A stretch of DNA of 64,000 bases from Acidobacteriota bacterium (GCA_965209055.1 OZ242374.1:3712001-3776000), one strand, 5' to 3'; positions 8,318 through 41,118 are shown, counted from the first letter of the stretch. The notes: a model not told the origin generated them from the letters alone. A program made the numbers and translations.

Positions 8318-8385
8318 GGCCGCGCGAGGAGGCCGCGAGGAGGCCGCGGTAGGGGACAGTCACCTCTTCTCAGCACCTCCTCTCT
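8318..8385 (+). repeat. GGGGACAG-core site A with stutter repeats
   Basis: GAGGCCGC x3 then AGGGGACAGTCACCTC at 8351-8366. Confidence 0.7.
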
Positions 8386-8394
8386 CGCGCTTCT

Positions 8395-8415
8395 TGTTAT
8401 CATGATCTGATAACA
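8395..8415. promoter_or_regulatory. Candidate operator of the TA pair
   Basis: Perfect inverted repeat TGTTATCA-N5-TGATAACA immediately upstream of the 8423 start. Confidence 0.65.
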
Positions 8416-8422
8416 TCAGTCG

Positions 8423-8785
8423 ATGACGACGCCGGACCGAGACCCCGGACTGGACACGCTGCTCGACCTTCACGGCGAGACGCTGTTTGTGAACGACACG
8501 GGGCATTGGGTGAAGTTCGTTGTAATACGGACCGAAGTAACACCCGAACGACCACACGGCCTCCGCTACTCGTTAACGCTGCACGCGCCGGATGGCGCCA
8601 GATTGGTTGGATTCGACAATGCACATCCGGTTAGGGAGCGGCCAGGCCCGGGCAGGCGTCGACGGACAGAGCGCGACCATCGGCATCGGCTGCGGAAGAT
8701 CCGGTCCTATGCATACAGAGACGCGGCAACTCTCCTGGAGGATTTCTGGAAAGAAGTGGACCAAGTTCTTGGAGAAGGAGGCTAG
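8423..8785 (+). CDS. DUF6516 / TumE-like putative toxin
   Basis: RPHGLRYSLTLH..G.RLVGFDNAH and DHRH...LLEDFW motifs, upstream of an HTH gene. Confidence 0.75.
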   Translation: MTTPDRDPGLDTLLDLHGETLFVNDTGHWVKFVVIRTEVTPERPHGLRYSLTLHAPDGARLVGFDNAHPVRERPGPGRRRRTERDHRHRLRKIRSYAYRDAATLLEDFWKEVDQVLGEGG

Positions 8786-8790
8786 ATTCC

Positions 8791-9159
8791 ATGAAGACAC
8801 TGAAGATCGGGATCGCCGGCTACGACCAGATGAAGGCGCGCACCCTGGCGATTGCTCGCGGCGACCACACGCCCGCGAAGGGTGAGCCGAAGGTGTGGTT
8901 CACCTCGATCGAGAGCTTTGCGAAGTTGCTTTCCGAGCACAACCGGCATCTTCTGGAGTTGATTGCCCGTGAGAAACCGCGTTCGCTCACGGAACTCGCT
9001 GAGATAGCCGGGCGAAGCAAGTCGAACCTTTCTCGGACCCTGAAGATGATGTCTCAATACGGGCTCGTGGAATTGAGACACGGAGAACGTGGGAGGCTGG
9101 TACCTCGGGTGCCATACGACCACGTGAGGCTCGATGTCTCGTTGACTTCCACGCGGTGA
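8791..9159 (+). CDS. HTH putative antitoxin / transcriptional regulator (HVO_A0114-like)
   Basis: WFTSIESFAKLLSEHN, SLTELAEIAGRSKSNLSRTLK HTH; 5 bp after the preceding gene. Confidence 0.8.
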   Translation: MKTLKIGIAGYDQMKARTLAIARGDHTPAKGEPKVWFTSIESFAKLLSEHNRHLLELIAREKPRSLTELAEIAGRSKSNLSRTLKMMSQYGLVELRHGERGRLVPRVPYDHVRLDVSLTSTR

Positions 9160-9172
9160 AGCACGCGCGCGC

Positions 9173-9210
9173 GGAAGGGACAGTCACCTCCATCTAGTGT
9201 CACCTCCGTC
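9173..9210 (+). repeat. GGGACAG-core site B
   Basis: GGAAGGGACAGTCACCTCC followed by a second GTCACCTCC. Confidence 0.7.
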
Positions 9211-9253
9211 TCGCCGCGCGAGTTCCCAAAGCTGCCGCGGCCACCGGTAACGG

Positions 9254-10483
9254 CTAGCTGATGGGTCCGAAATCGGGAACCTTCAGCCAGTCTCCACCCT
9301 TCAGAGCTGATTGGAAGCCGACGATTCCGGGCGCCGTATAGGCCAGGGCCTGATGGACATCGACCGACGGGGGGCGCTGCTCCAGACAGGCCGAGACGAA
9401 CTCATGAATGATGAAGGGATGGGAGCCTCCGTGCCCCTCAACGTTCCGCAGTGACGGCGGCAGCTCTGCCGAGTGGTCCGCCTGCAACAGTTCGGGTTCC
9501 GAATCGGGAAGGGTCACGTAAGCGGAGGGGCGCATGCCCTTCCACCTCTCGAACAACGACATTTCGGTCCCAAAATAGTCCGCTCCTTCACGGCCGGGAG
9601 CTGCACTCCACCAGTGGATGTTGATTCGGGAGGAGTTTCCACCCGAGGTTTTGAAGAAGAAGGTGGTGTTTATGAACGGGTTACCGTACCGGTTCTCCTT
9701 GTAGAACGGGTGGTCCAGCGGCGTTCCGACCGCCGCGACTTCAACCAGGCTCTCGCCGGTCACATAGATGACCGGACCGCTGGCGTGGGTGATATAGAGG
9801 CCTTGGGCGTTGCCATACCGCCAGGTCCGCCTGCCCTCGTGAAAGTACATCCGGTCCAGGTACTCCGGCATCTCCCCCTTCGCCAGGTAGGTGCCGTGGT
9901 CATGGATGTAATCTCCCTGGGTGAAGTAGATTCTCCCGAACTTGCCTTCCTGTCTCAGTCTGCGGGCCGTCATGGTAGCTGGATGAAAGCAACTGGTTTC
10001 GGCCATCATGTAGATCTGACCGGTTTTTTTGACGGCCTCCAGAAGCTGCTGGCACTGTTCCAGGCTGATGGCGGCCGGAACCGCACAGATGACATGCCGG
10101 CCGGACTCCATGACCTCCACGCAGTGGGGAACGTGACGGGGCGCCCCGGTGAAGATGGCAACGGCATCCACTGTGGGGTCCTTGAGCAGGGCGCGGAAGT
10201 CGGCATGGGCATTGGAGCACGCGAACCGCTCTTCCAGCCTTTTTCGGCGGTCCTCCCTGAGATCGGCGACCGCGGTCACCTTGCAGTTGGGATGCCGATG
10301 CCAGGGAAACGCGGCGCCGAATCCGCCGCCCACCACACCGATCCGCAACTGCTTGCCGGCATCGATCGGCCTGTATCGTTGTCCGAATAGCGAAGCCGTC
10401 AATGCAGTCGTACCGGCTGCCTTCGCACTTTGAAAAAACACTCGGCGGCTGATGGACGGGGATTCCGCCTCATATCTCACCAT
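9254..10483 (-). CDS. Gfo/Idh/MocA-family oxidoreductase, Tat-like N-terminus
   Basis: IGVVGGGFG, HVICAVPAA, YMMAETS, GHGGSHPFIIHEF; SRRVFF motif; start taken at ATG 10483. Confidence 0.88.
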   Translation of the reverse strand: MVRYEAESPSISRRVFFQSAKAAGTTALTASLFGQRYRPIDAGKQLRIGVVGGGFGAAFPWHRHPNCKVTAVADLREDRRKRLEERFACSNAHADFRALLKDPTVDAVAIFTGAPRHVPHCVEVMESGRHVICAVPAAISLEQCQQLLEAVKKTGQIYMMAETSCFHPATMTARRLRQEGKFGRIYFTQGDYIHDHGTYLAKGEMPEYLDRMYFHEGRRTWRYGNAQGLYITHASGPVIYVTGESLVEVAAVGTPLDHPFYKENRYGNPFINTTFFFKTSGGNSSRINIHWWSAAPGREGADYFGTEMSLFERWKGMRPSAYVTLPDSEPELLQADHSAELPPSLRNVEGHGGSHPFIIHEFVSACLEQRPPSVDVHQALAYTAPGIVGFQSALKGGDWLKVPDFGPIS

Positions 10484-10593
10484 GATGGCCGTCCTTTCCG
10501 GGGGTTGGGTATCGGGTGGATCGTAGAGGACACTGAATCGGGCGGTCAAGGCGGGGTGAATCCGGTTTGAATGGGTTAAAGACACTTGGCGGT

Positions 10594-10635
10594 GTGGAGA
10601 TGGGGACAGGTGGAGAAGGGGACAGGCGCCTCCCC
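10594..10635 (+). repeat. GGGGACAG-core site C (16-bp tandem)
   Basis: GTGGAGATGGGGACAG then GTGGAGAAGGGGACAG, followed by GCGCCTCC. Confidence 0.7.
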
Positions 10636-18766: not shown

Positions 18767-18867
18767 GAGAGGAGGGAGAGGAGGTGACTGTCCCCTTTTC
18801 CAGAGGAGGTGACTGTCCCCTTTTCCCAGTCCCCTTTTCCCAATCCCCTTTTCCCAATCGGTCCCCT
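18767..18867 (-). repeat. GGGGACAG-core site D with tandem and decaying repeats
   Basis: 25-bp AGAGGAGGTGACTGTCCCCTTTTCC x2 (18777-18826), then two 14-bp CA(G/A)TCCCCTTTTCC partial copies. Confidence 0.85.
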
Positions 18868-23812: not shown

Positions 23813-24988
23813 CTACTTGGAGTCGCCGGTCGAGGTCAATTGCGGCTCGACCCACGTGCCTCCGTTCCGTGCGGACCGGGCGGCGGCGTGGACGACGGCC
23901 AACGTCCGGAGCCCCTCCTCCCCGGCCGGATACCAGGTTGCGGCCGGGTGCGGGGCCCGTCCTTCGTCCCGGGCGCGAATCGTCTCTGCAAGATTCGAGT
24001 AGATGTTGGCGATGGCTCCTGGGAATCCCTCGGCGTGGCCGACGGTGATGCGCGACGCCAGCCGGGCCTCTCCGCTGAGCCGGACATCCCCTCGTTCCCG
24101 CGTCCGGGTCGGCTTCCCCAAGGGGGGCCAGTAGAGCTGGTTCGGATGCTCCTGGACCCAATGCAGCCCGCCAAGCTCCCCGAAGACACGGAGGTTCAGG
24201 CCGTGCTGCTGCCCGACCGCCACGGCACTCGTCCAGAGGCGGCCAGTGGCGCCGCCTGCGAATCGCAGCGCCAACAGGGCATCGTCCTCAAGCTCCCGGC
24301 TCTCGAAAACGGAGACGAAATCCGCGGAGACGCGAGTCACCTGTTGTCCGATGACGAAGCACGCCATGTGGAGCGCGTGCAGTCCGGCGTCGGCGAGCAC
24401 CGAACTCACGCCGGTCTGCTCCGGATCGTAGCGCCAGCGGACCCCGGGGTTGTCCGCGTCTGCGGCATCCGCATGCGACCCGTGGGAGAACTCCGCCACC
24501 ACGATCCGGATCCTTCCCAGCTTGCCGTCGCGAACCATGGACCGCGCCTGGCGTACCATGGGGTAGCCGCTGTAGCCGTAGTTCACTGCCAGGATCCGGT
24601 CGGCGTCGCGGGCGGTCCGGACTAGGTTCTCGCCCTCCGCCAGAGTCACGGTCAGCGGCTTTTCGCAGAGGACGTGGAAACCCGCCTCCAGAAACGCCTT
24701 GGAGATCTCATGGTGAGTGGAGTTCGGCGTGGCGACCGTCACCAAGTCGAGCCTGCCGTAGGTCGGGAGCCTCTTCTCCCGCCCAAGCATCTCGCGCCAG
24801 TCGCCGTAGGCGCGGTCCTCGGGGACCCCCAATCGGACCGCGAATTCACGGGCCCGGACGGGGTTGATGTCCAGAGCGCCAGCGACCAGTTCGAAGTGCC
24901 CGTCGAGCCTCGCGCCGATACGGTGGGCGCTCCCGATCTGGCGGGTCTCACCACCTCCCACCAGTCCCCAGTTGAGCTGGAGCGGCAT
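23813..24988 (-). CDS. Gfo/Idh/MocA-family oxidoreductase
   Basis: WGLVGGG..QIG.AHR, ATPNSTH, VLCEKP, NYGYSGYPM, GHAEG. Confidence 0.92.
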   Translation of the reverse strand: MPLQLNWGLVGGGETRQIGSAHRIGARLDGHFELVAGALDINPVRAREFAVRLGVPEDRAYGDWREMLGREKRLPTYGRLDLVTVATPNSTHHEISKAFLEAGFHVLCEKPLTVTLAEGENLVRTARDADRILAVNYGYSGYPMVRQARSMVRDGKLGRIRIVVAEFSHGSHADAADADNPGVRWRYDPEQTGVSSVLADAGLHALHMACFVIGQQVTRVSADFVSVFESRELEDDALLALRFAGGATGRLWTSAVAVGQQHGLNLRVFGELGGLHWVQEHPNQLYWPPLGKPTRTRERGDVRLSGEARLASRITVGHAEGFPGAIANIYSNLAETIRARDEGRAPHPAATWYPAGEEGLRTLAVVHAAARSARNGGTWVEPQLTSTGDSK

Positions 24989-25097
24989 CGCCGCGATCCT
25001 CCATTTTCGACACCCGGACCCGAGAACTGCCAGCGGATACCAAGCAGGTCTCCAGTTGGAAAACGATCATCACCGCGCCCAGCCGGACTGTCAATTT
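24852..25097 (+). repeat. ~246-bp imperfect direct repeat, copy 1
   Basis: Colinear with 27620-27865; covers the 5' end and upstream region of the Gfo/Idh/MocA gene. Confidence 0.9.
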
Positions 25098-25923
25098 TCT
25101 CTTCCGAGCGCAACATCGGTGCACCCTGGGAGGGGGACGTTCTTGGCCCTCTCTTCAACACCGATCTGTCCCCTCTTCAAAACGCCATGCATGGAGAACT
25201 TCGGATCGAAAAAAGCTGCACGTGTATCGTATAGGAAATGAGATCCGGATCGACTCGAACCAATGTCCCGTACATTTGGCCCCGTACATTACGTACAGGG
25301 CAGGTGGCCGGTAAGTTGGTGTACTTGGATCTCAACCAATGGATTGAACTAGCCAAAGCCCACTCTGGCCATCCAGACGGTAAAAAGAACACGGAGGTTC
25401 TCGATGCTTGCACCAGAGCGGTGGCAACTGGGGAAGCAATCTGTCCACTATCGTTCACGACCTTTCTGGAAATTTCCAAGATCCGATCTTACCGGCAGCG
25501 CCGAAGTCTAGGTCAAGTCATTGAAGCAATCTCACGCTATTTCGTAGTGACATCACTAAATGTGATTTGGACCCATGAAGTGGAAGCGGCACTTGATTCA
25601 ATCGTCGGTCCCAATCCTACGCCTATCCCATGGAATGATTATCTCGATTGGGGAATTTTTCGGGCAATGGGGATCAATGGTTCCGTGAGAATTTTGACGA
25701 AGGATAACAAAGATGTTACTTCTCAGTTTCGTCGATCCTATCCTGAAGGTACGGAAGCCTTTGATGAATACGTTGCTAAAGCACTCCTTAAGCTGAACAG
25801 GGAAATCATTGAGGGACCGGCGCCAAGTAAGAGAAATGAATTTCGCAAGCTTGGGTGGGACCCACACCGGACGTTCAAGGCCGTTGAACAGGCTGCGTTA
25901 GAGGAAGCTGCACAGGTTGCTAG

Positions 25924-27114
25924 GGAAGGTCTGAATAAGTCCTCATACGGGGCGAAACAGACCTTGTATCTCTGCCTTTTTCGGATCCAGGCGTTGTAAC
26001 GTGGGATTTGCAACCCTGAATTGGTCTTGACCAAGCGATTGCGAGACGGTTTCCCCAGCCTCAAACACAGCCGTGCCGCATTCCGATCAGGCGGTCACAC
26101 CGGAGCGCTCGGCGATCATCAGATTGGCGAATCCCACCAGCAGATAGATCCGTTGGGTGTTTTTCGCCAGCCCGCGGTAGCGCACCTTGGCGTAGCCGAA
26201 ATGCCGTTTCAGGTACCCGAACACATGTTCGGCCTTCGCCCGAACCGATGCCTTGCGCCGCTCGGCCAACGCCGCCTCACTCTCCGGCGACAGCTGCCAA
26301 CGCTTCCCGGGCTTCATCATCACCTGCCAATCCATCGGCCGATCTCGATTCTCCGACCGCTTCTGCACTCCCTGGTATCCGGAATCCCCCCAAACTTGCG
26401 ACTCCGAGCCGTGCAGCAATTCGGAGGCCCGCGTCACGTCATGCTCGTTGGCCGGAGCCGTCACCACCGTGTGCGCCACCCCCGTCTGGGCGTCCACCCC
26501 CAAGTGGGCCTTCATTCCGAAATACCACTGTTTTCCCTTTTTCGTCTGGTGCATCTCCGGATCCCGCGCCCGATCCTTGTTTTTCGTCGAGGAAGGCGCC
26601 GCCAGGATACTCGCGTCCACGATCGTCCCACGGCTCAGCCGCAGGCCTTGCCGCTGCAGGTGAGAACCGATCTCCTCGAACAGCGCCTCCCCCAGACCAT
26701 GCTCCTCCAGCCGATGACGGAACTTCAGAATCGTCGTCTCGTCCGGCAGCGGCCCCGTGAGCTTCAGGCCCACGAACCGCCGCACCGATTCCACCTCATA
26801 GAGCAGATCTTCCATCCCCGGATCGCTCAGGTTGTAAAACAGCTGCACGCAGTGAACCCGCAGCATCGTCGAGAGCGGGTAGGGACGCCGGCCCCGTCCC
26901 GCTTTCGGGTAAAACGGCTCAATCCGGGCTTCCAAATGCTCCCACGGAATCAACCCGTCCATGCGGGCCAGAAACTTCTCTCGACGGGTCACCCGCTTCT
27001 TGGTGTCGTATTCCAGATCTGCGAACGTCCGTTGCGACATCGTCTTTCCCCCCAACGCAGTGATGATGAAAGAATTATCGTGCAGAACGCTGACTCGACT
27101 TAATCAGACCTTCC
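25924..27114 (-). mobile_element. IS5-family insertion sequence, 1191 bp
   Basis: TIRs GGAAGGTCTGAATAAGTC / GACTTAATCAGACCTTCC (17/18 match); CTAG duplicated at 25920-25923 and 27115-27118. Confidence 0.95.
26087..27040 (-). CDS. IS5-family DDE transposase
   Basis: TRREKFL, PDETTILKFRH, IVDAS, RDPEMHQTKKGKQWYFGMKAH, GDSGY, YAKVRYRGL.KN. Confidence 0.96.
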   Translation of the reverse strand: MSQRTFADLEYDTKKRVTRREKFLARMDGLIPWEHLEARIEPFYPKAGRGRRPYPLSTMLRVHCVQLFYNLSDPGMEDLLYEVESVRRFVGLKLTGPLPDETTILKFRHRLEEHGLGEALFEEIGSHLQRQGLRLSRGTIVDASILAAPSSTKNKDRARDPEMHQTKKGKQWYFGMKAHLGVDAQTGVAHTVVTAPANEHDVTRASELLHGSESQVWGDSGYQGVQKRSENRDRPMDWQVMMKPGKRWQLSPESEAALAERRKASVRAKAEHVFGYLKRHFGYAKVRYRGLAKNTQRIYLLVGFANLMIAERSGVTA

Positions 27115-27619
27115 CTAGATTCAACCAATATCCAAGATGGCGACGTGGAAGAATCCGTGACGTGATTGCTGCCCGGGAGATAGCACACGAGATCAACGTT
27201 ATCCTTGCAAAGGCATTACACGATCGTGGCATGTCCTTGAAGGATTTGGCGCCCGATATTGAGGGTCACCGCGAGATGTTCGACGCGATGCCAAGCTTCG
27301 ATGTCTGGGTGACAATGAAAGCAGAATATCACCGTGATCCGAGTCACCAGTGGACGCGCAATGATATATGCGACATTCAGGCGATGGCGGCGACAGTGCC
27401 TTACTGTGACGTAGTTGTAACTGATAAGGAGATCGCATCGCACGCGACTCGATCTGGACTGGACCACCGATTGAATACGGTTGTGTTGAGCAATCTGGCA
27501 GACTTGCTTGAGCATTTGTGATGGTACGGGTTTCCTCAAGGCGTCAATGCATTCATCCGTCTGCGTTTCCACCATATTAAGTGCGACCCGAAAGGAGACT
27601 CGTGGCGCCCACTGACAAA

Positions 27620-27865
27620 GCCCGGCTCAGGTCGATGTTCAGAGCGCCGGCGACAAATTGGACGTGTCCGTCGAGCCTCGCGCCGATGCGGTGGGCGCTC
27701 CCGATCTGGCTCGTCTCGCCACCTCCCACCAGTCCCCAGTTGAGCTTGAGCGGCATCGCCGCGATCCTCCATTTTCGACACCTGGACCCGCAAACTGCCA
27801 GCGGGTACGAAGCAGGTCTCCAGTTGGAAATCGATCATCACCGCGCCCGGCCGGACTGTCAATTT
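27620..27865 (+). repeat. ~246-bp imperfect direct repeat, copy 2 (truncated Gfo/Idh/MocA 5' fragment on -)
   Basis: Encodes MPLKLNWGLVGGGETSQIGSAHRIGARLDGH... from ATG 27756, diverging after ~45 codons. Confidence 0.9.
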
Positions 27866-36163: not shown

Positions 36164-37813
36164 ATGAACGAAATGACGAAAAGGCTTCTGATCGTAGCGC
36201 CGGTCGCGTTGGTCATCCTCCTGTTCCTGTCGTTGTTGCCCGTGGACCAGAACTACCTGTCTTCCCGGCAGTTGGACGCAACCTGGCTGGCGTTGCTGCC
36301 GCCGCTGGTGGCCATCGTCTCGGTTCTCATCACCCGCTGGCTGGTTCCGTCCCTCATCTTCGGAATCGCCAGCGCCGCCGTGATTCATGCCTGGCCCTCG
36401 CCCGGCGCCATGGCGGAGTCGCTCTTCGTGAATTACTTCTGGGATTCGGTTCTCGATTCGTTCCACCTCTCCATCCTCGGCTTCACGGCGTCGCTGCTGG
36501 CCCTGGTCAGTGTCACCACCGCCAGCGGCGGGATCCAGGGAATGATCAACCTCATCCTGCGGCTGGCCCGGGGACGCCGCGGAGTATCGGTGGCGACGGT
36601 GGGCATGGGCTTCACTATCTTTTTCGACGACTATGCCAATACGGCGATCGTGGGGCCCACGGTCCGGCCCTTGTTCGATCGGCTGAAGCTGTCCCGCGCC
36701 AAGCTGGCATACCTCATCGACTCGACCGCGGCTCCCATCGCCGGTCTCGCGTTGGTCTCGACCTGGATCGGGACCGAGGTCTCCTACCTCCAGGGCGCGG
36801 CCCGGGACCTGGGATTGGACGCCAGTGGATACGGCCTCTTCCTCTCGGCGATGGGGTACCGGTTCTATTGCATCTTCGCCTTGTTCCTGGTGATCGTGGT
36901 GGCGGCCACGGGCCGCGACTTCGGGCCCATGCTGAAGGTGGAGAGAAAGGCGCGCCGGGTGCCCGAGCCCTCCGGCCTTCAGTCCTCGGCGGAGTCACCG
37001 GAGATCGAGCCGCGCTGGTACAACGCCGTGGTGCCCATCGGCACGGTGCTGTTTCTCATCATGATCCAGATCTACTACTGGGGAAGCCAGGGTCCGGGGA
37101 CCGACTTGACCTCCTTGTCGGGATGGAAGGATGTGTTCATCCGGGCCGCCGCGGCCCAGGACGGCGAAGCCCTCACGTTCGCCATGCTCTACGCGGGCGT
37201 CACCGGAGCCGCTCTGGCGATCCTGTTGCCGGCCCTGCAGGGCGTGATGACGGTGCGGGAGGGGCTTCTGGCGTGGGTCGGGGGTGTCCGGCATATTTCG
37301 GGGGCCCTGGTGGTGATCGTCTGCGCCTGGGCTCTTTCGGCCGGATGCCGCGACTTGGAGACGGCCCACTACGCCGTCGCCGTGTTGCGCCAGGGCGTGA
37401 GCGTCGAGTGGGTTCCGCTTGCGGTGTTCGTCACCGCCGGACTGGTCGCCTTCTCCACCGGGACCAGCTACGGGACCATGGCTATTATTATTCCCACCGC
37501 CGCCCAGTTGGGGTATGAATCGGGCGGTGAGGCGGTGATGATCCTGGCCATGGCCGCCGTCCTGGACGGCGCCATCTTCGGCGACCACTGCAGCCCCATC
37601 TCCGACACCACCGTCCTCTCTTCCATCTGCAGCGGGTGCGAACACCTGGAGCATGTGCGCACCCAGATCCCATACGCTCTTCTCGGGGCGGTGGTGGCCG
37701 CCCTGGCCGGCTATGCCCTGGTGGGCGCCTGGGGAGCCGATCTCTGGGTCGGAATGGCCGCGGGCATGACTGGGATCCTCGTCCTGATTCACGTCGCGGG
37801 CCGGCGGGCCTGA
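36164..37813 (+). CDS. Na+/H+ antiporter NhaC-family transporter
   Basis: IFFDDYAN, KLAYLIDSTAAP, FSTGTSYGTM, GAIFGDHCSPISDTT. Confidence 0.92.
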   Translation: MNEMTKRLLIVAPVALVILLFLSLLPVDQNYLSSRQLDATWLALLPPLVAIVSVLITRWLVPSLIFGIASAAVIHAWPSPGAMAESLFVNYFWDSVLDSFHLSILGFTASLLALVSVTTASGGIQGMINLILRLARGRRGVSVATVGMGFTIFFDDYANTAIVGPTVRPLFDRLKLSRAKLAYLIDSTAAPIAGLALVSTWIGTEVSYLQGAARDLGLDASGYGLFLSAMGYRFYCIFALFLVIVVAATGRDFGPMLKVERKARRVPEPSGLQSSAESPEIEPRWYNAVVPIGTVLFLIMIQIYYWGSQGPGTDLTSLSGWKDVFIRAAAAQDGEALTFAMLYAGVTGAALAILLPALQGVMTVREGLLAWVGGVRHISGALVVIVCAWALSAGCRDLETAHYAVAVLRQGVSVEWVPLAVFVTAGLVAFSTGTSYGTMAIIIPTAAQLGYESGGEAVMILAMAAVLDGAIFGDHCSPISDTTVLSSICSGCEHLEHVRTQIPYALLGAVVAALAGYALVGAWGADLWVGMAAGMTGILVLIHVAGRRA

Positions 37814-37891: not shown

Positions 37892-37958
37892 TGGAGTAGT
37901 CTCTGGAAAGGGACAGTCTGGAGTACTCTCTGGAGTAGTCTCTGGAAAGGGACAGTCT
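37892..37958 (+). repeat. GGGACAG-core site E (28-bp duplicate)
   Basis: TGGAGTAGTCTCTGGAAAGGGACAGTCT at 37892 and 37931, with a partial GGAGTACTCTC between them. Confidence 0.85.
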
Positions 37959-38212
37959 CGATTCCCGGCGGGAAGCGAATCTACGGCATTCTCGAGTTCC
38001 GTTTCTTTACGATTGTGGGGGATCAGAGAAAGCTTGTCAGGCACGGCCGCCGGGATTGGACCACCTCGACACTATCCTCGTTCAACCCAGCTTACCCAGG
38101 TCTCCCGAACCGTCAGAAAATAAGGGAGAGTCCAGGGTCTATTCGGTGGATCCTGTGATCCGGATGGTTCGGTGCCGCAGTGGCCCAATCGGCGGCCGGC
38201 GATCAGACAAGT

Positions 38213-39148
38213 CTACGGGACCAACGCGTGCGAGCGCTGCTCCCGCAGGGAAAACAGCACTCCGCCCAGTTGGGGGATTGGGTGTCGGCGACGTCGATAC
38301 CGGCCTTGCTGCCGATACGCCTCCAGCAACTGCGCCACCTTCTCGGCTGGCCCCACGGCCAAACCGTCCGTCAGGAATCGCAAACGCCGGCGGAACGCTC
38401 CGGCTCGGGCGAATCCACGCCGCTCCTCCTGCTGGAGGATCCACTGCGGGATCGCGGCTTGGTTGTCTTTGGTGGGGACGGCTCCCCGATAGTACAAGCG
38501 AGCCCGGTAACCACCGTACACGTCGGTTCCGGGAACCGACGGAAACAGTTCCTCCAGGGGAATCAGGTCCTCGTCCTTGCCCAACCGTCGCCAGCGGGCC
38601 GAGCCCCACTTCCACTGCTCCGGCCGGTTGGCCAGTCCCGCCCGCACGGCGTTGAGTTCCACGTACAGGACGGCGTCCTGGACGGCTTCCATTCCCAAGA
38701 GTTCCGAGTTCTTGAAACGATCACTCCAAAAATGGCCTCGCCGGCCGAACTGGCGGTTGAACCACCGGGCATAGAGTCCGTTGACGTCCGCCATCAGCCT
38801 CGACACGTCGAACAGACGCCGATTGAGAGCCTCCCACTGGACGTCGGTCCAATCGGCGGTCTTCTTCTCGGCCTGCTCGCCATAGAGCTTGTGGGTGCTC
38901 TTTTTCAACTCCTTGCGGGACAACGACCGGGGCTTCTCGAAATGGACGATGAGGTGGTAGTGATTGCCCATGATCTGGAAGGCGGCCAGACGGCAGCGGT
39001 AGGCATTGACGTAAAACACCATCATGTCCAGGAATTTGCGACGGGCCTGGGGGTCTTCCAAGGGGAACCAATCGGGTCGGCCGGCGACTCGATTGGTGAG
39101 GTGATAGAAGGCGGCTTCGGTGCTCTTGTGCCGTGCGGTTCGGGGCAT
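38213..39148 (-). CDS. HUH Y1 tyrosine transposase, REP-associated (RAYT/TnpA-like)
   Basis: MPRTAR...YHLTNR, MGNHYHL (HUH), GHFWSDRFK, YVELNAVRAGL (catalytic Tyr), WKWGS; no tnpB nearby. Confidence 0.9.
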   Translation of the reverse strand: MPRTARHKSTEAAFYHLTNRVAGRPDWFPLEDPQARRKFLDMMVFYVNAYRCRLAAFQIMGNHYHLIVHFEKPRSLSRKELKKSTHKLYGEQAEKKTADWTDVQWEALNRRLFDVSRLMADVNGLYARWFNRQFGRRGHFWSDRFKNSELLGMEAVQDAVLYVELNAVRAGLANRPEQWKWGSARWRRLGKDEDLIPLEELFPSVPGTDVYGGYRARLYYRGAVPTKDNQAAIPQWILQQEERRGFARAGAFRRRLRFLTDGLAVGPAEKVAQLLEAYRQQGRYRRRRHPIPQLGGVLFSLREQRSHALVP

Positions 39149-39246
39149 GGCGGTGGTCCTAGGTCGTCCGAACTCGGAATCGGCGGAGATCGGTTCGTGC
39201 CTCTGATAACAAGAACGACTCAGAACCGGGAAAGGCGAAGGAAACT

Positions 39247-39386
39247 CAAGAAAATCAGCATACGGAGATACAGACAGCATACGGAGATACAGACTGTCCC
39301 CTTCCAGCAAGAAAATCAGCATACGGAGATACAGACCGGAGATACAGACTGTCCCCTTTCGGAACGGTCCCCTTCCGGAACGGAAT
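39247..39386 (-). repeat. GGGGACAG-core site F with nested duplications
   Basis: CAAGAAAATCAGCATACGGAGATACAGAC x2, GGAGATACAGAC x4, GACTGTCCCCTT x2, partial GTCCCCTTCCGGAACGG. Confidence 0.85.
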
Positions 39387-39524
39387 GCGCCCTTCGTTTA
39401 CTATCTGGGAGGGATTACCCTGGATCCGCACACTGACCGGCGATTCAGGCAGGCGACATTGATTTTGCGATGATGTCAGACATTCGCAATGCGGGGGTCA
39501 ATGAGAAGGAAAGAGAAGGAGCCC

Positions 39525-39962
39525 ATGCTGATCGCAACCGGGGCACTACTCGTTTTGCTGGGGAACCTCGCTTGGGCGACGGGTGAACGCGTCTCCTGCG
39601 GCGGCCAGGCGCCAGGCGCTGAGTGTTGGATGGAGGTGGCCAACCGGCCAGGATGCTACATCTGGAACGGGCACCTCATGCGTAACCAGACGGTGACTTG
39701 GACGGGCGAGTGCGCCGGGAGCTTGGCTCAAGGGGTGGGGACTCTCAAATGGGTCTGGGCGAAGGGAAAGAAAACATCCGAGGAGACTGGGCAGCTCCGG
39801 ACCGGCAGGCAACACGGGCGATGGGTTGTGCGGCTCGCGGATGGCACTGTCGCACAAGGCCCGTTCGTGGAGGGGAAGCGACACGGGCGGTGGGTCGTGC
39901 AGGATGCGAACGGAAACAGACGAGAGATCGCCTTCAAGAAAGGCAAGCGGAGTTCTCGCTAG
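39525..39962 (+). CDS. Small secreted Cys-rich protein with MORN-like repeats
   Basis: AAGGAG RBS, signal peptide, CW.E....GCYIWN, WTGEC, G..HGRWV x2. Confidence 0.75.
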   Translation: MLIATGALLVLLGNLAWATGERVSCGGQAPGAECWMEVANRPGCYIWNGHLMRNQTVTWTGECAGSLAQGVGTLKWVWAKGKKTSEETGQLRTGRQHGRWVVRLADGTVAQGPFVEGKRHGRWVVQDANGNRREIAFKKGKRSSR

Positions 39963-39999
39963 CTCTTCTCTCCCAGCGTAGAGGCGTGCGGAGAAACAT

Positions 40000-40115
40000 G
40001 CAGGGAAACAGACTGTCCCGTTCCGCGCGCGGTCCCCTTCCGCGTTCCTCGCAGAAACAGACCGCAGAAACAGACTGTCCCCTTCCGGAATGGCCGTCCC
40101 CTTCCGGAATGGCCG
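40000..40115 (-). repeat. GGG(G)ACAG-core site G with nested duplications
   Basis: GAAACAGAC x3, ACAGACTGTCCC x2, GTCCCCTTCCGGAATGGCCG x2. Confidence 0.85.
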
Positions 40116-40194
40116 GGCGCGACGGCCATTCTCATCCTGATCCACGTCGTGGGCCGTCGGGCGTGAACGGTCTCCGAGCGTGTCCGTCTTCCCG

Positions 40195-40266: not shown

Positions 40267-41118
40267 ATGATGTTGCGACGGACAAGCATATTCCTTTTGC
40301 TGGCGGGGTTGGGATTCACCCAGGCCTGTCAGGCTTCGAGCCATAAGGATCAAGGGACCCGGTATCTGCGTTTCAGCGTGGACGGCCAGGAAGCGTACGG
40401 CATTCTGGAGGGGGATCAGGTCCGTCAACTGAGCGGGGACCTCTACGGCGAATGGGAAAAGACCGAAACCACCCATGCCCTCTCGGACGTCACCATTCTG
40501 GTGCCCAGCAAGAACCCCTCCAAGGTCTTGGCCCTGGCCGGAAACTACAAGTCCCACATCGGGGATTCGGAGCCGAACCCCTATCCGGAACCCTTCATCA
40601 AGCTTCCCTCCTCCTTGCTGCCCCAGGGGGGAGATATCGTCCAGCCCTCCGACACGGATCCGGTGCACTACGAGGCCGAAGTCGTCATCGTCATCGGCAA
40701 GCGGGCCCGGAACGTGTCGCTTGAGCAGGCTATGGACTATGTCCTGGGCATCACCTGCGGCAACGACATCAGCGCCCGGACCTGGCAGAGAAACGACGTC
40801 CAATGGTGGCGGGCCAAGGCCGCGGATACCTTCAGCCCCACCGGGCCCTACATCCTCTCAGGCGTGGATTTCAGCGACTTGAACATGGTGCTCAAGGTCA
40901 ATGGGGAGGTCCGCCAGGAAGCCAAGATCTCCGACATGATCCACGGCATCGCCGAGTCGGTCAGCTTCATCAGCAAGTACGTGACCTTGGAACCGGGAGA
41001 TCTGATCTTCACCGGAACCCCGGGGACCACCAAGGGCATGCAGCCCGGAGACGAGGTCACCGTGGAGATCGACGGGGTCGGAGTCCTGAAGAACAAGATC
41101 GTCGCCGCCGGTTCCTGA
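40267..41118 (+). CDS. Fumarylacetoacetate hydrolase-family protein with signal-peptide-like N-terminus
   Basis: NYKSH, HYEAE, NDISAR, KAADTF.P.GP, GDLIFTGTPG. Confidence 0.92.
   Translation: MMLRRTSIFLLLAGLGFTQACQASSHKDQGTRYLRFSVDGQEAYGILEGDQVRQLSGDLYGEWEKTETTHALSDVTILVPSKNPSKVLALAGNYKSHIGDSEPNPYPEPFIKLPSSLLPQGGDIVQPSDTDPVHYEAEVVIVIGKRARNVSLEQAMDYVLGITCGNDISARTWQRNDVQWWRAKAADTFSPTGPYILSGVDFSDLNMVLKVNGEVRQEAKISDMIHGIAESVSFISKYVTLEPGDLIFTGTPGTTKGMQPGDEVTVEIDGVGVLKNKIVAAGS

Follow-up and report, generated by a model that had tools for sequence, protein, structure and literature searches.

The locus described here lies in a 64,000-nucleotide stretch of Acidobacteriota DNA (the window), taken from a 6.08-Mb genome assembled as a single contig (G000), and was compared across nine genomes of the genus (G000-G008). 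On the left the insert is flanked by a host gene for an NhaC-family Na+/H+ antiporter (36164..37813, + strand; PF03553, 5.6e-43), with orthologues at 91-97% in all eight other genomes, and on the right by a host FAA-hydrolase gene (40267..41118, +; PF01557), which directly follows the antiporter gene in G001, G005, G006 and G007. Past the last 63 nt of the antiporter gene (37751-37813, +), the working copy of a repeated 3' tail, comes site cluster E (37892..37967, +), comprising stutter repeats and two right-end (R-type) sites GGAAAGGGACAGTCT (37905-37919 and 37944-37958, +) with cores GGGACAGTC at 37910 and 37949. A TIRYT-like HUH/Y1 tyrosine transposase of 311 aa, carrying H63-Y-H65 and Y162, is encoded at 38213..39148 (-; PF01797, 2.8e-09) and is followed by site cluster F (39247..39385, -), in which truncated copies accompany two left-end (L-type) sites GGGGACAGTCTGTATCTCC (39283-39301 and 39338-39356, -; cores 39292-39300 and 39347-39355). 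The cargo, a MORN-like and probably secreted protein of 145 aa (39525..39962, +), separates F from site cluster G (39997..40114, -), the outer end of the insert, again with truncated copies and two left-end sites, GGGACAGTCTGT (40008-40019 and 40070-40081, -; cores 40011-40019 and 40073-40081). Abutting G is a diverged second copy of the antiporter tail (40106..40166, +).

A preliminary description had correctly located all six sites, with their orientations, and the ORF of 311 aa; E and F do face each other across the minus-strand transposase ORF, and the gene between F and G is, as proposed, MORN-like (Atlas MORN clusters, 0.93), with a signal peptide recognized by eye and no Pfam hit. Its start is probably 39525, with AAGGAG 4 nt upstream, rather than 39489, because seven of eight sequencing runs, all but X1, carry a 2-nt deletion at 39493. 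The same description had noted the absence of tnpB and of an obvious IS200/IS605 subterminal hairpin: nothing tnpB-like was seen among the ORFs adjoining the transposase gene, and predicted folding of clusters E and F is no better than that of shuffled sequences (z 0 to -1), cluster G reaching z -2.2 on one strand only. Recurrence of the sites exceeds chance. Across the 6.08-Mb genome, GGGACAGTCTGT was counted 12 times where an order-5 Markov model predicts 0.31, and GGGACAGTCT 66 times where it predicts 10.9. Within the window, enrichment of the 7-mer GGGACAG by itself is only weak (26 against 16 expected; 3 of 100 shuffles as high).

The repetition of the antiporter tail is absent from the preliminary description. 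The two tails differ by 11 substitutions in 61 nt and a 2-nt gap; nine of 17 codons differ, five of them silently, and the copy at 40106-40166 is nearer to the G002, G003 and G006 alleles (7-8 differences) than to the antiporter gene of its own genome. A separate 95-nt copy of the antiporter tail, at 92.6%, was found in G002.

Relation of the transposase to known HUH/Y1 families

H63, H65 and Y162 are invariant across 48 homologues of the transposase, and no HTH family was detected in any of these 48 members (Pfam, E 0.1). The structure model (pLDDT 87.4) finds its best fold match in TnpA-REP (4ER8), followed by IS200/IS608 transposases, and possesses extra helices at 78-111; the HUH-to-Y spacing is about 97-99, and the motif reads Y-VEL-NA. 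A match to NF047646 scored 52.7 bits, against a curated cut-off of 80. Six copies of the gene were identified in G000 and 3-12 matches in each genus genome, with sequence changes among copies mostly silent, and close homologues are labelled Acidobacteriota. Judged on these features, the gene encodes an intact HUH/Y1 transposase of a kind already known, the TIRYT/TIRtron, and is neither a REP-hairpin RAYT nor an IS200/IS605 element. The earlier label "RAYT-like" is better replaced by TIRYT/TIRtron-like given the sub-threshold NF047646 score and the lack of REP hairpins.

TIRYTs and TIRtrons are described in the accessible text of Di Nocera et al. (2013; PMC3733652) as a RAYT-like HUH/Y1 gene within inverted repeats that bear a GGGGWSAS-type motif and are not REPs. 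By its anatomy the present locus is a TIRtron: it combines a RAYT-like HUH motif and catalytic tyrosine (H63, H65, Y162) with inverted repeats, not REPs, flanking the gene, and the repeats of TIRtron genomes likewise occur singly or grouped elsewhere (PMC3733652, same text). Three of the six window sites (both F sites and the second G site) are exactly GGGGACAG, the other three having one G fewer. What sets the present system apart is that its left end differs from its right, that places recur between genomes, that cargo turns over, that alleles from elsewhere are duplicated and that a cut site can be predicted; the accessible text of PMC3733652 describes none of these and reports no biochemical test.

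A long protein with an insertion between the HUH strand and the tyrosine helix, present in several diverged copies per genome and free of REP hairpins, also recalls TnpA-Y1 subclass 2.3 (Quentin et al. 2018; 10.1101/279083), for which the available portion of that work gives an insertion between beta3 and alphaC, a long C-terminal tail and a length near 325 aa (311 aa here). By this comparison of features the transposase is a candidate member; the median HUH-to-Y spacing of that subclass is 110 rather than about 97-99, its motif Y---NP contrasts with Y-VEL-NA and its gammaproteobacterial host with Acidobacteriota. Subclass 2.1, which includes most TIRYTs and alone occurs in 14.9% of strains according to the same portion, possesses a C-terminal HTH, whereas no Pfam HTH was found here. 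Group 1 RAYTs (Bertels et al. 2017; 10.1101/119735, as far as its available text extends) were compared jointly with subclasses 2.3 and 2.1.

RAYT/REPtron systems (4ER8; PMC8266576, in its accessible sections) share the fold and the HUH/Y chemistry, and the C|A and C|T nicks proposed below coincide with their known cut dinucleotides. Here, by contrast, the gene is multi-copy (six copies, not a low number), no significant fold was found at E or F and no GTAG-footed hairpin is present, the NF047646 score falls short of its cut-off, and the predicted cut lies inside a short GACWGTC palindrome. IS200/IS605 elements differ in size, the IS200/IS608 chains among the matches listed having 125-152 residues against 311 aa, in addition to the hairpin and the optional tnpB-like ORF that E, F and the adjoining ORFs lack.

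Typed ends and a predicted cut position

From G000-G007 we collected 63 near-full-length transposase copies, the fragmented G008 giving none of full length. Sites facing the gene were found upstream of 61 of the 63 and downstream of 53, which bears out the expectation that homologous loci keep the motif. The left (L) consensus, AAGAAGGGGACAGTCTRTTTTTCC, was derived from 100 sites and the right (R) consensus, GAAAGGGACAGTCTCGATTYCC, from 117, with only about 11-12 typed sites of each kind per genome. By these consensuses E is a right end, and F and G are both left ends. The preliminary reading, in which enzyme, site, cassette and site follow one another, is partly supported: F and G, which share their orientation, represent the left end of the element twice over and are not special cassette sites. 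We also inspected 17 loci of more distant homologues, all but one at 42-58% identity; many have similar GGGACA cores beside them, among them loci labelled Planctomycetota, Myxococcota and Deltaproteobacteria.

The element ends are full of short stutter repeats, consisting of partial site copies. Among inner partial copies that keep any core base, 17 of 21 start at |GTC (two of the 17 being variant GAC-G-GTC sites), and 16 more keep none; the outer partial copies (n=29) end at GGGAC| in nine cases, at GG| in nine and at GGGACA| in four. The repeats break at GAC|W|GTC, which suggests C|A and C|T nicks; taken as 3'-OH ends, the boundaries would put the cut of one strand at GGGAC|A and that of the opposite strand at AGAC|T. 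The dinucleotides C|T and C|A are those cleaved by TnpA-REP enzymes, which leave a 3'-OH able to prime or attack (PMC8266576, accessible sections).

Comparison of closely related strains indicates that the site arrays are changing now. Strains about 98-99% identical, represented by sequencing runs from three studies, keep the transposase and cargo and differ at E, F and G: F arrays show skips of 74 nt and 91 nt, E has one copy only in X7/X8 and extra copies in X5/X6, and G gains an extra copy in X5, X6 and X15. In the genome G008, E has one copy and G one site. Near-identical sequence was found in sponge metagenome runs of two studies (X5, X6, X15). Run X11 contains empty joins across the insert, and no contig joint showing a circle or an inverted form was found in the eight sequencing runs.

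A third site type, GGGACAGTCACC, neither L nor R, was also identified. Co-oriented GGGACAGTCACC sites at 8353 and 9177 of the window bound a TumE toxin-antitoxin pair that lies to the left of an oxidoreductase gene in G000 and to the right of it in G002, G003, G005, G006 and G007; with one query, the pair was not found in G001, G004 and G008. A profile search of G000 for a separate cognate enzyme returned the six known copies only, and one other Y1_Tnp gene, at C1:1142970, was rejected for this role, no such sites lying beside it. The stretch from 8353 to 10625 forms an array of co-oriented GGGACAG sites (8353, 9177, 10603 and 10619), with no transposase nearby, delimiting the TumE/HVO_A0114 pair and a GFO oxidoreductase gene, whose order and presence vary across the genus. 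Two more GGGACAGTCACC-type sites (-) with stutter repeats are intergenic at 18786-18819. At 24862-27865, the 5' end of a GFO oxidoreductase gene recurs as a direct repeat of 236 nt (91.5%) around a low-GC gene of 253 aa and an IS-like gene, with only a weak site at the junction.

Elsewhere in G000, approximately 20 tandem GGGACAGTC sites occupy 600 nt (C1:1751900-1752490), 9.5 kb from a transposase copy and themselves without one. A GTAG-footed palindrome family with an GGGGACAGTCTTGTCCCC stem has the site core and numbers 15 exact copies in G000 (for example at C1:348, 777492 and 953555); this family may derive from, or compete for, the same enzyme.

Shared places, flanking duplications and cargo in the genus

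At the antiporter junction, G001, G005, G006 and G007 possess neither the transposase nor the MORN-like gene. G000, G002, G003 and G004 each have a transposase here, oriented alike and at different junctions, and vertical descent of one transposase at this place was rejected, the four copies not forming one clade (four changes, 0% of bootstrap trees; midpoint-rooted tree of 71 rows, with long branches only among other genera). The MORN-like gene occurs at the junction in G000 and G008 only, G002, G003 and G004 carrying the transposase without it. In G008 a broken transposase is accompanied by E, the MORN-like cargo, a single G site and the copied tail, and in this fragmented genome the breakage and the split locus may partly be due to assembly. 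With the MORN-like gene in two of nine genomes and sites kept elsewhere, cargo varies while sites persist, as had been anticipated for the neighbouring gene. No other transposase locus fetched has the MORN-like gene, and MORN paralogues are mostly not site-bounded, one of 18 other MORN-family loci fetched having a site within about 1.5 kb.

On the G000 map, the 63 copies occupy 17 places, of which 14 recur in at least two genomes and account for 60 copies; the other three copies are at unshared places. Both transposase orientations were observed at four places, place h3 is occupied in all eight near-complete genomes, and h5 in seven of the eight. No common target motif was apparent by eye at 15 empty positions, where assorted REP-like or miniature repeats are found. 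The remnant at place h8 is old, given that it is common to four genomes. Two loci of G002 (L064, L062) and one of G003 (L074) combine left and right flanks from different places, h3 and h4, consistent with rearrangement between transposase copies. At L098 in G007, three transposase copies lie within 9 kb, and between them a single host gene end recurs in copies derived from different alleles.

When 41 loci were mapped to an empty reference, 16 displayed flank overlaps of at least 35 nt, with differing junction pairs; 19 of the 41 gave negative overlaps, mostly unalignable intergenic repeats in the reference and not scored as deletions, and three loci were unmapped. Among codons with a single change in the flanking duplications of 17 locus pairs, which are not fully independent, 94 were silent and 39 were not, against a silent share of 0.30 under neutral decay (17 of 18 pairs had a usable frame; L079, L102 and two L098 pairs, nearly duplicating loci already included, were omitted). 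This silent excess rules out neutral decay of an identical target duplication and implies that both repeat copies diverged while coding, in different lineages. Nearest-neighbour scans of the flanks revealed general mosaicism, with the foreign copy indistinct at most places. A ComEC-family gene is present, and Ku-type end joining was set aside, G000 giving no PF02735 match.

Coding sequences at least 97% identical make up 32 of 230 same-genome pairs, 4 of 100 pairs from the same place in different genomes, and 3 of 1558 other pairs. In most near-identical paralogues the match is confined to the coding sequence and 2-173 nt upstream and does not reach the ends, which points to gene conversion; near-identity from end to end in L065/L066/L080 and in L087/L088 points to real transposition. 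A distant genome possesses five similar copies (L184-L188).

Other cargo was also identified. An enolase-family gene lies behind same-type ends at h5 in G004, G006 and G007 (three of eight genomes), and G001 has a DHDPS and enolase pair behind a same-type end. Transposase-free inserts bounded by typed sites occur at shared places: one of about 7.5 kb in G006 (L261), with PD-(D/E)XK, DUF4268 and DUF5131 genes matching PADLOC candidate systems, is bounded by a left site and a left-right mini-element and accompanied by a 291-nt duplication, and one in G002 (L262) comprises an oxygenase-domain gene and an 890-nt near-identical duplication. KAP-NTPase and NACHT-LRR genes in G002 (L259) have a site on one side only, L264 of G006 is a lone left site, and many other alleles at shared places are plain empty. 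Part of the large cargo corresponds to other mobile elements, namely IS-like and integrase islands. Islands labelled integrase-like from sequence reading lie at GGGACTGTTAGTCCC-type sites in G000 (C1, about 337.5k/349.4k, 3374k/3394.8k and 3166k), several at places used by the transposase.

As a control, we surveyed local diverged repeats in G000. Of 38 unique repeats, five have a strict site at the junction and 33 do not, where 0.4% would be expected, or 1.1% in low-GC windows (P 5e-7 to 7e-5); the search missed the 61-nt repeat of the window itself. A looser site pattern gave nine of 38, four being REP hairpins or weak matches, hence the strict count. Sites often directly abut the repeat junctions. 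They mark a significant minority of such duplications, and a general duplication process exists without them.

Interpretation and rival explanations

The comparative pattern is a matter of observation across these genomes. From it and from the site anatomy we infer that the enzyme takes part in cassette turnover and moves the MORN-like cassette. The account towards which we lean, somewhat beyond even chances, is a nick-and-join cassette platform working with homologous recombination, in which a TIRtron-type element with typed ends, together with its cargo genes, turns over among related species at the 17 places. At each end the enzyme would nick inside GAC|W|GTC; the ends so freed would be joined to new DNA, with homologous recombination fixing the other side of the incoming DNA. 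Nicks at C|A and C|T on opposite strands would provide a 3'-OH that may slip back and re-prime, generating stutter repeats. DNA of a sister lineage would enter through a single ordinary homologous crossover paired with a new site junction or, alternatively, by a crossover inside two occupied alleles, either route leaving a foreign gene tail such as that at 40106-40166. A gene behind a second same-type end, as the MORN-like gene between F and G, would become cargo and could outlast the transposase. Transposase coding sequences would be homogenized within a genome by ectopic recombination, with occasional true end-to-end transposition. Several observations weigh against the platform: the outer stutter boundary is broad, with GG| as common as GGGAC| (9 of 29 each); copy-number change in tandem repeats needs no nuclease; paralogue identity short of the ends fits gene conversion at old resident loci, not fresh insertion; and duplications also arise without the element, as in the 33 G000 repeats without a strict site. 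The absence of circles or inverted forms in the eight runs, the age of the h8 remnant, the share of large cargo owed to other mobile elements and the use of the third site type GGGACAGTCACC, with no cognate enzyme found, by the toxin-antitoxin module point the same way.

In a bolder version, which we hold tentatively and rate as less than probable, the TIRYT would be an HUH-based counterpart of integrons, cutting both strands of a hairpin-free GACWGTC core and, with host recombination, loading, reordering and unloading cassettes at fixed platforms, even, through action in trans, at those from which the transposase has been lost; the genes moved would be defence, toxin-antitoxin, secreted and catabolic ones. 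Integrons combine a tyrosine-recombinase integrase with attI and with attC hairpins; here the enzyme is of the HUH/Y1 type, and the sites show no attC-like folding.

The foremost rival, unlikely in our estimate and still deserving weight, is generic insertion with long target duplication, in which DNA of relatives recombines at permissive slots with no dedicated enzyme. The TIRtron would then be a long-resident passenger, its arrays changing through replication slippage and its coding sequence homogenized by gene conversion. It is the site-free process evident in G000 (33 of 38 repeats) that keeps this explanation at the standing we give it; such insertions, free of other mobile elements, have been described for restriction-modification genes, chiefly in species with natural competence (PMC2853133, accessible text), and the near-constant occupancy of h3 (8/8) and h5 (7/8), the paralogue identity that ends short of the element ends and the mosaic, recombining nature of the genus would all be compatible with it. 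Slippage alone, however, does not predict the sharp |GTC starts (17 of 21), and enrichment of sites at repeat junctions (5 of 38), often abutting them, orientation flips at four places and order swaps of site-bounded modules between species also argue for more than permissive slots.

We consider it distinctly improbable that the locus is an ordinary IS-like unit, in which G, as outer left end, and E, as right end, would delimit a composite transposon that brought in the MORN-like gene, the shared places reflecting target preference. A multi-copy gene (3-12 matches per genus genome) with mostly silent changes, the end-to-end copies L065/L066/L080 and L087/L088 and the five similar copies L184-L188 are what such a unit would leave, but only three of 63 copies lie at unshared places, no common target motif was seen at empty places, the MORN-like gene accompanies no other fetched transposase locus, and identical target duplications under neutral decay would give no silent excess. 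Very improbable, and largely refuted by six genome copies and the missing hairpins, is a RAYT domesticated as a single copy, with REP-like repeats for sites that would serve the host in a way unconnected with the movement of cargo: the TnpA-REP structural match, the sub-threshold NF047646 match and the long-lived loci agree with it, whereas the ends have neither a hairpin at E or F nor a GTAG-footed palindrome, and a genome contains only about 11-12 each of the L and R sites.

Among known systems, long-target-duplication insertion (Furuta et al. 2010; PMC2853133) is similar in its long, variable direct repeats overlapping gene ends, and the 61-nt repeat (>30 bp) and the junction empty in four of nine genomes agree with it. 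In the accessible text of that paper such insertions are by definition without other mobile elements, and five Table 2 repeats are near-identical; here, a transposase and its ends lie inside the insert, junctions abut the transposase ends, and the repeat copies come from different lineages. ISCR1 and complex class 1 integrons join an HUH enzyme to gene capture and duplication of neighbouring segments (PMC3575428, accessible text), and the likeness extends to HUH-linked capture in ISCR1 and to site-delimited modules changing order in integrons. ISCR elements differ in having IS91-type rolling-circle enzymes, ori/ter ends and no inverted repeats, according to the same text. In its working, the platform would most resemble a hybrid of long-target-duplication insertion and ISCR-type capture.

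TIRYT-like proteins are one of the largest HUH/Y1 groups, and our search, mainly of openly accessible literature, found no functional test of them and no typed ends, shared platforms, cargo turnover or cut site for TIRYTs. The present locus offers a substrate (the typed ends), a predicted cut, and a predicted product with one homologous and one site junction, which makes the role of TIRYT enzymes directly testable. The enzyme likely cuts the ends and likely helps to swap cassettes, which would give the TIRYT family a job. If the platform reading is true, it would represent a gene-capture route separate from integrons and ISCR elements, supply the enzyme behind some of the insertions with long target duplication that lack an explanation, and define a small, site-specific and hairpin-independent nick-and-join enzyme.

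IS copies at the centre of duplications are described in the accessible text of PMC11708052. In G000, three 1.9-kb inserts were found within perfect direct repeats of 107-147 nt (C1:1179803, 3009595 and 5284576), which suggests insertion sequences with very long target duplications.
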